This document shows positions 2,786 through 5,497 of a stretch of 35,158 nucleotides of DNA, piece after piece. The notes under the pieces are model-generated. The model did not search any database. It was not told the DNA's origin and saw only the letters and a list, made by a program, of their open reading frames with translations. Source of the stretch: Octopus sinensis (lineage: Eukaryota); contig NW_021831957.1 of the NCBI RefSeq assembly GCF_006345805.1, forward strand, positions 1-35,158. The letters are read 5' to 3'. Both the position numbers and the translations under genes were made by a program. The first letter of the stretch is position 1, and each line of letters starts with the position of its first letter.

Positions 2786-2993
2786 GTTAATCCAAACATA
2801 AAAACACAAAGAGAAAACACAACAACGCGAGGACGTGGAACAAGTGTAGTGTTATTAGACGCTCAGGAAAGGAAAGAAAGAAGGAGAGTTTAACGTTTCG
2901 AGCGGAGCTCTTCGTCAGAAACATGGGAAAAGGAAAAGTCCAAGGAAGGGAAAACGGAGGAAAAAAATTTGCCAACGATACGCATGCAGTCAC
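2786..2993 (-). mobile_element. Short Penelope-like (pLTR-type) module carrying a hammerhead
   Basis: Non-microsatellite island between TA repeats that contains a minimal hammerhead; its edge 'atagttaatccaaaca' recurs at ~30738. Confidence 0.6.
2888..2922 (-). ncRNA. Minimal type I hammerhead ribozyme, canonical C3-G8 core
   Basis: Minus strand GTTT-CTGACGA-A-GAGC-TCC-GCTC-GAAA-CG-T-T-AAAC: stem I GTTT/AAAC, stem II GAGC/GCTC, palindromic AACGTT at stem III. Confidence 0.8.
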
Positions 2994-3097
2994 ATATATA
3001 TATTGCGTGCATCACACTTACTTCAAAGTAGCAAAGGGAGACAGAGGGCAGAGAGGAAAAAAGAGAGAGAGAAAGTGAGAGAGAGAGAGAGAGAGAA

Positions 3098-3139
<42 letters not shown>

Positions 3140-3294
3140 AGAGACTGTGAGTGGTGACGGTGTTTGTTTTGTGTTTTTAACTGTTAATCGCATCAGGAGA
3201 GAAATAGATACATACATATATAGGGAGAGTTCACGAAAAAAACAAAAGACAAAGACAGGTGGTGTAGAAAACAAACAGATGCAGTGAAAAAAAT

Positions 3295-3330
3295 CTTTTA
3301 CGTTTTGAGCCTATGCTCTTCTACAGAAAG
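3295..3330 (-). ncRNA. Degenerate minimal hammerhead (A6U core, G12A) in a related module ~3221-3410
   Basis: Minus strand CTTT-CTGTAGA-A-GAGC-ATAG-GCTC-AAAA-CG-T-A-AAAG; same layout as 2888-2922. Confidence 0.6.
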
Positions 3331-3431
3331 GGGCACAGAAAAAAAAACAAGGAGAGAAGCAAGGAGAGAAAAAAAATGTGTGTAGTGGCTACCGATCTAT
3401 CATGGCAACTCATATAGACATTGTTAAATCA

Positions 3432-3726
3432 TATATACATATATATACTCATATATACATTATATATACATATACATATATACATCATATATACATTATG
3501 TATGTATGTATGTATGTATGTATGTATATATATATGTATGTATATATATATGTATGTATATATATATATGTAAGTATATATATATGTATGTATATATATA
3601 TATGTAAGTATATATATATGTATGTATATATATATATGTAAGTATATATATATGTATGTATATATATATATATGTAAGTATATATATATGTATGTATATA
3701 TATATATATGTAAGTATATATATATG

Positions 3727-3768
<42 letters not shown>
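3432..3768. repeat. TA/TATG compound microsatellite
   Basis: Direct reading; internal 'atgtaagtatatatatatgtatgt' higher-order unit. Confidence 0.95.
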
Positions 3769-3818
3769 AAAAACAGGTCAAAATAGAAAATGCTAAAATA
3801 ATTTTATAAAGAACATTT

Positions 3819-3856
3819 CAGTACCGGTTTCGGTCATTTTGAGACTTTTTCAACTG
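3819..3856 (-). ncRNA. Minimal hammerhead, U3-A8 core variant
   Basis: Minus strand CAG-TTGAAAA-AGTC-TCAAAAT-GACC-GAAA-CCGG-T-A-CTG. Confidence 0.65.
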
Positions 3857-4022
3857 TAACGATTAAATAATTAAATTTAGAAAAATTAAAAGAAAAGTTT
3901 TTTTAAAGGAATATTTGTATAGTGTTCAAACATAAGTGGCATTCTGCCTTTCTCTGTCTCCCTTATATTCCTTTAAAAAAACTTTTCTTTTAATTTTTCT
4001 AAATTTAATTATTTAATCGTTA

Positions 4023-4060
4023 CAGTTGAAAAGGTCTCAAAATGACCGAAACCGGTACTA
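4023..4060 (+). ncRNA. Minimal hammerhead, U3-A8 core variant (inverted partner of 3819-3856)
   Basis: CAG-TTGAAAA-GGTC-TCAAAAT-GACC-GAAA-CCGG-T-A-CTA; 4-bp stem II, palindromic ACCGGT. Confidence 0.65.
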
Positions 4061-4186
4061 AAATGTTCTTTATAAAATTATTTTAGCATTTTCTATTTTG
4101 ACTTGCTTTGTCATATATATCAACTCGTGTGTTCCTTTTCACCCTTATACATATATATATATATATATATATATATTGATAGATAT

Positions 4187-4449
4187 TACAGAGATGTACT
4201 CGCATAGCGAGTGATTTGATCTGAGATCGTGTGCTGAAACGAAAACAATTGCAGCGTGGAAGGTGTGTGTAAGCCATTTAAGAAACACACAAAAGCCGTT
4301 CGATTCACTGCAACATTTAAGTTTAATTTGTCAAAATATTTCCGTCGCTAAAATCCGCGACCTGTTCACTGACAAAATGTTGAAGTGAATCGAACGGCTT
4401 TTGTGTGTTTCTTAAATGGCTTACAAACACCTTCCACGCTGCAATTGTT
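4187..4449 (-). mobile_element. Foldback PLE-like module with ~75-bp inverted arms (4243-4319 / 4375-4449)
   Basis: 'aacaattgcagcgtggaagg..caacattt' and its reverse complement enclose a hammerhead-like motif; TA repeats on both sides. Confidence 0.7.
4327..4376 (-). ncRNA. Hammerhead-like motif, G3-C8 core variant
   Basis: Minus strand TTTGTCA-GTGAACA-G-GTCGC-GGATTTTA-GCGAC-GGAAATATTT-TGACAAA: 7-bp stem I, 5-bp stem II; GAAA side imperfect in this copy. Confidence 0.6.
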
Positions 4450-4461
4450 ATATATAGATAG

Positions 4462-4492
<31 letters not shown>

Positions 4493-4983
4493 CATCATAT
4501 ATACATATATATATATACATCATATATACATATATATATACATCATATATACATATATATACATCATATATACATATATATACTCATATATACATTGTTA
4601 AATCAAAAGCAGGAGAGAAGAGGGACAGAAAGGAAGTGAAAGAGAAAGTGAGAGAGTCAGTAGATAAGAGTTCCTATTTGAACTCTTATTGTATATAATT
4701 ATTCCTAACAACAACAAAGGTTCAATCTATTGTTTGACAACCATCCCAGATTGTTTTCCTCATTAACAAAACAGATCATCATACATCCTATGAGACTGCT
4801 TCCTCCCTTGTAATTAGGCACACACTCTATTAATACTGCTTTTAGGGTGCAGTTCCTAGGTACTTTCTCATGCTTTGGAGATGGCAGAATTATCTGGGAT
4901 TTTTGTGTGGGATTTACCCCAGATTACCCTAAGTGAACTGACCTACTATTGGGGATTATATTTATTTATTCATTATTATTATT

Positions 4984-5497
4984 TAGAATGGTTGTATACT
5001 GTCAGGGGGTTACATTACCGCTGTTTAGCCCTACTGTCACATTCGTTCATGTTAGATTGACAGTATACAACCATTCTATCGCCCCACCACCGTACATATC
5101 TCTATGAGAGATTTAGAAATTCAATATTTCTGATTTTGGTAATCAGTGAATAAACTTCACTGAAAATTAGATAAATATATTTGCGGATCGGGACAGATAT
5201 TCGCGGCTGACGGGCGTCTGCTACTCTAGACCGATGAAGGACAATGATCCTGAAACATGCGTGTCTCTAGATGCAGGCCTGGCTGTTGGGGGTGTTTGTC
5301 TCCCCTTCGTAAATGTATATAAGGACACAGGAATAATGTGTCAAAGCCATCAGGAGGTGTCGATGCTTCCTAGGGCTAAACAGCGGTGGTGTAACCCCCT
5401 ACTGTCACGTTCACGTTAGATTGACAGTATACAACCATTCTATCGCCCCACCACCATACATATCTCTATGAGAGATTTAGAAATTTAATATTTCTGA
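4984..5497 (+). mobile_element. PLE-like module with partial direct repeat and short inverted 5' segments
   Basis: ~100-bp direct repeat at ~5029-5135 and ~5397-5497; 5004-5032 is the reverse complement of 5372-5400; 4985-5004 is the reverse complement of 'tgacagtatacaaccattct'; central hammerhead. Confidence 0.7.
5225..5271 (+). ncRNA. Type I hammerhead, U4C core variant
   Basis: TCTAGA-CCGATGA-AGGA-CAATGA-TCCT-GAAA-CATGCGTG-T-C-TCTAGA: 6-bp stem I, 4-bp stem II, near-palindromic stem III, GUC cleavage triplet. Confidence 0.75.

Follow-up and report, generated by a model that had tools for sequence, protein, structure and literature searches.

Penelope-like elements (PLEs) carry hammerhead ribozymes (HHRs) almost universally, and these ribozymes are poor cutters in vitro and seemingly dispensable for in vitro insertion. 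Small variants of the PLE HHR have reportedly been described by Lunse, Weinberg and Breaker in 2017. The PLE HHRs analysed by Cervera and de la Pena (2014) include motifs with a U3-A8 pair, as well as opposite-strand pairs located 100-700 bp apart (PMC4209133). Inverted truncated arms, a tail at one end and TA flanks are described as signatures of PLE insertion in the available parts of two further reports (PMC8557442, PMC11167929), and a PLE origin has been argued for non-LTR retrozymes (bioRxiv 10.64898/2026.07.22.740005). Target-specific insertion is known from non-LTR elements of the Tx1 clade, such as Tx1 into Tx1D, Keno into U2, and Tx1-Mar into Mariner (available part of PMC4494074).

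We analysed a stretch of 35,158 nucleotides of Octopus sinensis DNA (the window), for which an initial annotation had proposed six minimal type I HHR motifs within 2.4 kb. All six were found in 2786-5497, at the positions and on the strands proposed beforehand, each in the min-HHR order of stem I, core, stem II, GAAA, palindrome, UH, and stem I'. The GAAA ascribed to every motif does not hold for the copy at 3295, which reads AAAA (G12A). A permissive descriptor, which allows up to two core deviations and was drawn up after the six motifs were known, gave six matches in this interval against a mean of 0.12 and a maximum of 1 in 100 dinucleotide shuffles, and three matches versus none in 150 shuffles were obtained with zero deviations. 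The other 32 kb of the window held no HHR motif at one deviation or fewer, and hammerhead was absent among the 150 of 177 matches listed in an Rfam scan (E ≤ 10). The motifs belong to five repeat families and correspond to five insertions, since a single inverted insertion supplies both the 3819 and the 4023 motif, one on each arm, and these two are not independent. Private core or stem defects were observed in four of the six copies: besides the G12A change, the 3819 copy has lost its 10.1-11.1 pair (G10.1A), the third stem I pair is disrupted in the 4023 copy, and the 4327 copy carries A13G, a minority state in its family (2/100 of the first genomic matches). The cluster itself is ordinary debris, made up mostly of decaying relics.

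Three of the five families (A2, B and C) are tied to ORFs encoding a reverse transcriptase (RT) and a GIY-YIG endonuclease, and in all three the HHR lies in sense orientation in the terminal repeat downstream of the PLE ORF. Family B is represented by the left (3768-3964, minus strand) and right (3965-4145, plus strand) arms of an inverted PLE 3' end; its hammerheads (3819-3856, minus strand, with a CCGG palindrome; 4023-4060, plus strand) have the core UUGAAAA with U3-A8. A PLE tail of ~35 nt is present on the right arm and missing from the left, and it corresponds to the start of the 5' UTR in a near full-length element (L123), where a pair of directly repeated HHRs, spaced by 4,386 bp, flanks the RT and GIY-YIG ORF as direct pseudo-LTRs. 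The B RT was over the PF00078 cut-off (E 4.6e-8 in L123), as was the endonuclease over that of PF01541 in a second locus, L024. Family A2 is the 5'-truncated 3' end of a Neptune-type PLE (3212-3410, minus strand; hammerhead at 3295-3330, minus strand, core CUGUAGA). Family C, which from its motifs we take to be Nematis-like, is a PLE 3' end with a ~60-nt tail (4186-4377, minus strand; hammerhead at 4327-4376, minus strand, core GUGAACA with G3-C8), next to an inverted fragment of the same family without tail or HHR (4378-4448, plus strand). RT and GIY-YIG ORFs were located upstream of A2 copies (L230, L234/L256) and of a C copy (L083/L257) whose UTR is common to an independent copy (L117); here the RT motifs were read directly, and PF01541 fell below the cut-off (E 0.048 for A2, 3.3e-4 for C). 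In the longer A2 copies the RT, a Zn-finger linker and the GIY-YIG domain lie ~0.9 kb upstream. Inverted truncated copies, the one-sided tail and microsatellite flanks were seen for B and C both in the window and in the genome, and A2 copies have TA flanks. The families are distinct, as the annotation had it, but three of the five are not small families in their own right, being the 5'-truncated ends of 4-kb-scale PLEs. The possibility that the 3295 motif is a decayed A1 copy was ruled out, as it belongs to a separate family with a fixed A6U; A1 is related to A2 in the HHR and the 3' flank. Carrying both A6U and G12A, the window A2 hammerhead is likely dead.

The remaining families are short units. 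The A1 repeat (2787-2997, minus strand) spans ~210 nt, with fixed ends and TA microsatellite flanks, and its hammerhead (2888-2922, minus strand) has the core CUGACGA, C3-G8, a bulged A, a 4-bp stem II and a CG palindrome. The A1 HHR pattern has 10,412 exact genomic matches; the window HHR equals the family majority, and 71 of the first 100 genomic matches carry U4C instead. No parent ORF was found upstream in the 30 closest copies or in L259. Family D comprises a 364-nt retrozyme-like unit (5136-5500, plus strand), preceded by a short inverted piece (5004-5033) and a partial copy of the 3' end of the unit (together 5004-5135, plus strand). Its hammerhead (5225-5271, plus strand; core CCGAUGA, C3-G8, U4C, 6-bp stem I and a 10-nt near-palindrome) is identical to the family majority, U4C being fixed in the subfamily (80/92), and stem II covaries across the D group (GGA/UCC, GGG/CCC, GAG/CUC). 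The 364-nt period occurs as a dimer in L098/L112, and as partial tandems and inversions elsewhere; D is thus a non-coding unit within the 150-450 bp of retrozymes, with a type I HHR and tandem copies. No parent ORF was found for D either. The GIY-YIG ORFs adjoining it in L102 and L115 were rejected as candidates, since they belong to family G and to a Poseidon-like family, each with its own HHRs. A1 and D were likely moved by PLE proteins in trans.

Palindromes compatible with a dimer were present in the five family majorities (that of D with two G-U pairs), in agreement with the PLE-type minimal HHRs that had been proposed. When two copies were cofolded, their palindromes paired with each other for three of the six window copies (B1, B2 and D), and B1 and D reached the complete dimer fold; the palindrome was unused in the minimum free energy dimer folds of A1, A2 and C. 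We consider it probable that the six motifs are HHRs in 3' terminal repeats, brought in by five insertions into TA microsatellites. In the source elements the HHR likely folds, probably dimerising and assisted by protein, and would cut tandem transcripts slowly.

All of U4, G5, A6, A9, G12, A13 and A14 are kept in B, C and the A1 subfamily of the window; departures from the invariant core occur in A2 (A6U) and in D and most A1 copies (U4C). Of the 100 A2 matches listed, 99 have U6. The four N7 subfamilies, which together count 12,974 exact copies, all have A6U fixed; N7 takes all four bases, and the remaining core is fixed. CUGUAGA and CCGAUGA, listed initially among the covarying cores, are not variants of the 3-8 pair but carry a family-fixed A6U (CUGUNGA) and U4C. 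Both changes are predicted to weaken cleavage, as they affect positions at which substitutions reportedly reduce activity (under 0.1/min for A6C, much reduced for U4C; PMC3088659). Given that the A6U and U4C families are among the most numerous, what is conserved would be the core fold and not necessarily fast cleavage, and their fixation suggests that low cleavage is tolerated or favoured. The proposed selection for cleavage is accordingly supported in part only. Core and flank mismatch in the five families was 2.1/4.0, 2.7/3.4, 2.3/1.7, 3.7/3.3 and 2.1/3.8% (p 0.10-0.63). The core was the better conserved part in one non-CpG test for A2 (p 0.034), and the flank in two tests for C (p 0.043 and 0.005). 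Cores were thus not conserved above flanks in any family, an outcome that the initial annotation had named as evidence against its reading. For this reason, selection would act on the source elements only, and single copies decay neutrally.

A different explanation is that the HHR fold is kept mainly as a structural signal (for protein binding, dimerisation or template choice), with cleavage vestigial and the most abundant families effectively catalytically dead. The fixation of A6U over the four N7 subfamilies and the prevalence of U4C in A1 and D are in line with this idea, and so are a stem II that has 2 bp or is U-U-based in several families, the in vitro insertion of HHR-dead RNA of an Anolis PLE, which made cleavage dispensable there (available part of PMC11167929), and the high copy numbers attained by HHR-less Naiads (available part of PMC8557442). 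However, the catalysis-relevant G5, A9, G12, A13, A14, A15.1-U16.1, H17 and 3-8 pair are kept in family majorities, and U4C supports viroid infectivity (PMC3088659). We regard this explanation as rather unlikely. The idea that the locus is a functional cluster of host-selected ribozymes is largely refuted and very improbable: the concentration of the six motifs in 2.4 kb, with the remaining 32 kb free of matches at one deviation or fewer, would fit it, but four of the six have private defects, the strands are mixed, each motif is one among thousands of copies (hundreds for D), and, owing to shared TA targets, different families cluster genome-wide (an A2 copy has an A1 or C copy within 2.5 kb in 10/113 cases versus 2.8 expected).

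With respect to the 3-8 pair, the C-G, U-A and G-C states noted initially were confirmed: the pair is Watson-Crick in all five window family majorities and covaries genome-wide, A-U being found elsewhere in the genome. In line with the initial expectation that a CUGANGA search would miss most of the motifs, such searches undercount hammerheads here by a large factor. In the group with the CCGG palindrome we counted 10,221 U-A, 1,537 A-U, 189 A-A and 105 U-U, against 82, 294, 299 and 68 in the backward controls; counts of this size exaggerate how many events took place, because the copies of any one family are not independent. A loose descriptor (only G5, A9, GAAA and UH fixed) was run on 947 kb of loci that had been fetched by means of these families, so that its match counts are enriched; it gave 125 matches, 115 of them Watson-Crick at 3-8, with all seven multi-copy clusters paired, and the reversed-sequence control gave 2 matches, neither paired. 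A3-U8 was present in 15/15 fetched copies of the L151 family, and G3-C8 in 93 of the first 100 genomic matches of C. Unpaired states occurred in 4/20 sampled CCGG loci, and there is a multi-copy U3-G8 family (6/58 rows). Since the endonucleases of the U-A families are closely related, U-A may be a single inherited event; an endonuclease tree of 16 rows had 2/13 branches well supported, which is too little for counting 3-8 events. The covariation stems from few evolutionary events, and selection on the core fold in active lineages would be what maintains the pair. That the 3-8 matches arose by chance within repeat sequences is highly doubtful: non-independent copies do inflate the counts, but no fewer than three separate double changes (C-G to U-A, U-A to A-U, C-G to G-C), all paired, occurred in families that had been identified independently of the HHR, and the reversed control falls far below the 125 matches.

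We also observed an ORF1-only, Tx1-like element that is repeatedly inserted 26-48 nt upstream of these hammerheads, with target-site duplications of 12-17 nt in the six of six loci where both junctions were available. The D unit of the window is empty where other D copies hold this insert. In a 20-locus sample, 11 of the ORF1-element 3' ends precede a D-group HHR and nine are at non-HHR sites, a share above the 20% of flanks from which target preference is recognised (available part of PMC4494074). ORF1 contains a CCHC knuckle, with PF00098 over the cut-off, and its Atlas look-alikes are ZCCHC3 RNA-binding and CCHC domains (0.91-0.93), a lead only. An ORF2 (AP endonuclease and Tx1-type RT) was found neither in six complete inserts nor upstream of 16 further 3' ends; no such element turned up in library searches, and an ORF1 protein search of a 5.8-billion set gave none at E ≤ 0.001 among 8,000 scored. 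The clade is unproven and the element is not filed as Tx1, because neither ORF2 nor a partner element was found. The ORF1-D composites move as units, as L130, L296 and L315 have a common junction, and inversions in L341 and L352 span both the insert and the D unit. A single-founder origin of the composite is disfavoured, as the differing tails, the locally matched duplications, the different HHR families downstream and the nine non-HHR sites all speak for repeated insertion. With somewhat less than even confidence, we propose that the ORF1-only element prefers sites just upstream of the HHR in many diverged subfamilies. On this view, HHR cleavage of read-through RNA would leave the insert with a defined 3' end that includes target sequence, after which composites would also travel as PLE-type units; and the most successful PLE lineages would have fixed A6U or U4C and kept all four 3-8 forms, their activity being tuned down and not lost.

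In comparison with described systems, the window motifs are of the known PLE min-HHR kind (Cervera and de la Pena 2014, PMC4209133), which they resemble in the type I order, the short palindromic helix III, G10.1-C11.1, the bulge after A9 (matched in A1, A2 and C), the location in PLE terminal repeats, the mostly solo truncated copies, the opposite-strand pairs and U3-A8. In contrast, G3-C8, A3-U8 and the family-fixed A6U and U4C, as well as any cephalopod-type entry, are absent from the 56-motif alignment of that study as it appears in supplement file 2 part 2/3; Lunse, Weinberg and Breaker (2017) may list such variants. Natural families in all four 3-8 states, with fixed A6U and U4C and with hundreds to over ten thousand exact copies each, form an allelic series in one genome that is fit to ask whether fold or cleavage rate is kept by selection. 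Family D is similar to non-LTR retrozymes (Cervera and de la Pena 2020, PMC7229834) in its 364-nt non-coding unit, single type I HHR and tandem copies, and has an A-U or U-U pair at the base of stem II, U-U occurring also in the axolotl HHR_Amex2; it differs in its U4C core and in that long arrays give way mostly to 1-1.5-mers that show inversions and a tail of the PLE type. The ORF1-only insert resembles Tx1-clade elements, as described in the available part of PMC4494074, in the CCHC knuckle, the ZCCHC3-like RNA-binding look-alikes, the 12-17-nt duplications, the short variable tails, the stacking at one site and the preference for multicopy repeats. Unlike for them, no ORF2 was found for it, and its target is an HHR-bearing unit, across subfamilies that differ in site sequence; if confirmed, this element would extend the known targets of site-specific retroelements to repeats that bear ribozymes.

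All six hammerhead motifs proposed in the initial annotation were found as described, at 2888 (−; family A1), 3295 (−; A2), 3819 (−) and 4023 (+) (both family B), 4327 (−; C) and 5225 (+; D). A loose descriptor that fits all six gave 6 matches in 2786–5497, against a mean of 0.12 and a maximum of 1 in 100 shuffles; with zero core deviations, 3 motifs were retained there and none in 150 shuffles. In the same scan, no motif with one core deviation or fewer was found in the remainder of the window. The six motifs were absent among the 150 of 177 Rfam matches listed. Microsatellites and SINE-like repeats are abundant in the window; two abundant SINE-like repeats (2100–2780 and ~12 other places) often adjoin stubs of Penelope-like elements (PLEs) directly, as they do in the fetched loci. 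The window scan detected no hammerhead inside the tandem arrays at 18050–19871, 17369–17823 and 25097–26094 (periods of 156, 63 and 277 bp), and the ORF at 20739–20984 (+) may, judging from a sequence motif, encode the C-terminus of a transposase of the mariner type.

Every insert in the cluster borders TA-rich runs, and on another contig, which has 100 A2 matches, 10 of 113 A1 or C matches had one of these no more than 2.5 kb away, where local shifts predicted 2.8 (p 0.0004). From these results, we conclude that the cluster reflects nested insertion rather than a functional array.

DNA searches of the 2.72-Gb genome with the flanking sequences of B, A1, A2, C and D returned 926, 3,034, 5,504, 2,519 and 1,985 first-look candidates, respectively, 40 of which were scored per family. 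Exact patterns matched 10,412 times for A1, 12,974 for A2, 4,253 for C, and 92 and 261 for the D subfamily and the wider D group, with 0 matches in every backward control. Family B is young (97–99% identity); the flanks of its copies encode a reverse transcriptase (RT), a CxxxxCxxC linker and a GIY-YIG endonuclease (EN), and in a near-full-length element (L123) the hammerhead recurs as a direct repeat at a distance of 4,386 bp. In the window, 3819 and 4023 belong to two 3′ ends in inverted arrangement, one of which has a tail. Longer A2 copies (L230, L234, L256) have, upstream of the hammerhead, a ~0.9-kb UTR preceded by a GIY-YIG and RT ORF, which we take to be of Neptune type. In C, a 1.1-kb UTR, common to the independent copy L117, leads upstream to a GIY-YIG and RT ORF (L083, L257) of putative Nematis type; the Neptune, Nematis and Poseidon labels used here are tentative assignments from sequence motifs. 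A1 is a ~210-nt unit with identical ends in its closest copies, a query-biased set in which no ORF was found. D is a 364-nt unit for which the preceding sequence is always its own 3′ end; that end lies at either of two positions ~55 nt apart. The inverted copies, partial tandems, tails on one side only and flanking microsatellites match the way in which PLEs insert according to PMC8557442 and PMC11167929.

The initial annotation had interpreted the differing pairs at core positions 3 and 8 as compensatory change. The family majorities are indeed paired: C-G in A1, A2 and D, U-A in B, and G-C in C, where 93 of the 100 matches listed first have it. Further PLE families, located via their endonucleases without using the ribozyme sequence, carry hammerheads downstream of the EN that are U-A (families E, G, L146 and L147), A-U (the L151 family, 15/15 fetched copies) or C-G (a Poseidon-like family); several other EN loci had no hammerhead motif inside the fetched flank. 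A permissive scan of 947 kb of fetched loci, fixing only G5, A9, GAAA and UH, gave 125 matches, 115 of them paired at 3-8 (7/7 clusters), and 2 matches in reversed sequence. Genome-wide, 14,384 cores precede GAAACCGGU versus 1,660 backward, with U-A 10,221 (control 82), A-U 1,537 (294), A-A 189 (299) and U-U 105 (68). Sixteen of 20 loci, drawn from the first 100 matches for differing stem II with position 3 unseen at selection, were paired; all these counts are of copies, not independent events. The endonucleases of the U-A families resemble one another and the endonuclease tree is poorly resolved, so the compared sequences show no more than about three independent double changes. Compensatory change is supported by the family majorities and the U-A/A-U excess, but on few independent events.

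A multi-copy family with a U3-G8 wobble (L337; 6 of 58 rows of ORF1-end plus hammerhead matches) has U3-A8 relatives (L291); U3-G8 is possibly an intermediate between pairings. Other variants were also observed. The young A3-U8 family (L151:2071, L260–L273; 1,537 pattern matches) has a 2-bp stem II, and family G (L193–L222) carries, ~150 nt past the EN stop, an extremely small U3-A8 hammerhead with a 2-bp stem II and a 6–7-bp stem I. CCGG-palindrome families (L280, L282, L283, L287, L146, L147) have a U-U opening stem II or extra bases before GAAA. A multi-copy sequence ending GAAACCGGUC (L276 and five rows of the GAAACCGGU-core listing), unpaired at 3-8 and without stem I, may be a non-hammerhead or a dead lineage.

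Mismatches in core and flank were 7/329 and 175/4425 for A1, 9/330 and 137/4001 for A2, 4/176 and 27/1566 for B, 11/296 and 115/3531 for C, and 8/385 and 328/8728 for D, with no difference in rate in any of the five families. Taken literally, this contradicts the proposal that the motifs are selected for cleavage, but it is expected because copies should be neutral once inserted. In the window, only 2888 and 5225 match their family majority; 3295 (G12A) and 4327 (A13G) have core lesions, and 3819 and 4023 stem lesions. At other core positions, 99 of the first 100 A2 matches have U6 and none has A6, with all four bases present at N7. For A1, 71 of the first 100 matches have C4 instead of U4, and for D 80 of 92 do; D-group relatives with another stem II mostly have U4 (10 of 14 fetched). 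According to PMC3088659, A6C has low activity, U4C reduces activity yet keeps viability, and U-U at 10.1-11.1 is tolerated. Between lineages the fold is therefore conserved, though a high cleavage rate may not be.

A long form of D occurs at six loci, in which a 1.7-kb insert interrupts the unit ~30 nt upstream of the core. The insert encodes a protein of ~450 aa that has a CCHC knuckle but lacks an RT; its resemblance to CCHC and ZCCHC3-type proteins (Atlas look-alikes) provides a lead. A 12–17-nt duplication matching the local D subfamily flanks the insert in 6/6 loci, and the six inserts have five different tails. Twenty further 3′ ends were taken from the first 26 matches; of the six left out, five had previously been located next to D. 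A D-group hammerhead, in some cases of a U3-A8 family, follows 11 of these 20 ends but not the other 9. Genome-wide, 58 insert ends are followed at 26–48 nt by a core, stem II and GAAAC, against 0 in the control. Different inserts are stacked at one site in L335, and no ORF2 was seen in the 6 complete inserts or upstream of 16 further 3′ ends. These ORF1-only elements lie at L130, L294–L297, L299 and L314–L337; in the window D copy the insertion site is empty. Related ORF1-only forms make 1.7-kb tandem arrays (L334, units 99.8% identical) in which no hammerhead was detected. Tx1 elements target other repeats, according to PMC4494074; our literature searches found no hammerhead-bearing target of Tx1-type elements.

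Drawing on PMC4209133, PMC11167929 and PMC6765202, a tandem PLE transcript would likely carry two hammerheads whose palindromes pair as stem III. The dimer would then probably cleave 3′ of UH at a low rate, possibly assisted by the PLE protein, and reverse transcription, likely starting at the 3′ repeat, would mostly abort early, leaving hammerhead-bearing stubs. Cofolding predicted a full dimer for one window copy of B (B1) and for D, palindrome pairing for the other (B2), and no palindrome dimer for A1, A2 and C.

Our literature search found no cephalopod treatment of PLE hammerheads, PMC6962438 giving only an Rfam count, and no A6U hammerheads, although such variants may be listed in Lunse et al. 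2017. Minimal PLE hammerheads, U3-A8 and the dimer logic already appear in PMC4209133, whose 2014 alignment includes one Saccoglossus motif with U3-G8, like the family found here. Family D matches the description of the non-LTR retrozyme in PMC7229834 and bioRxiv 10.64898/2026.07.22.740005. The window motifs are real hammerhead sequences of the published PLE type; the unusual points are the natural variants of the core and a neighbour that was not expected, the ORF1-only insert.
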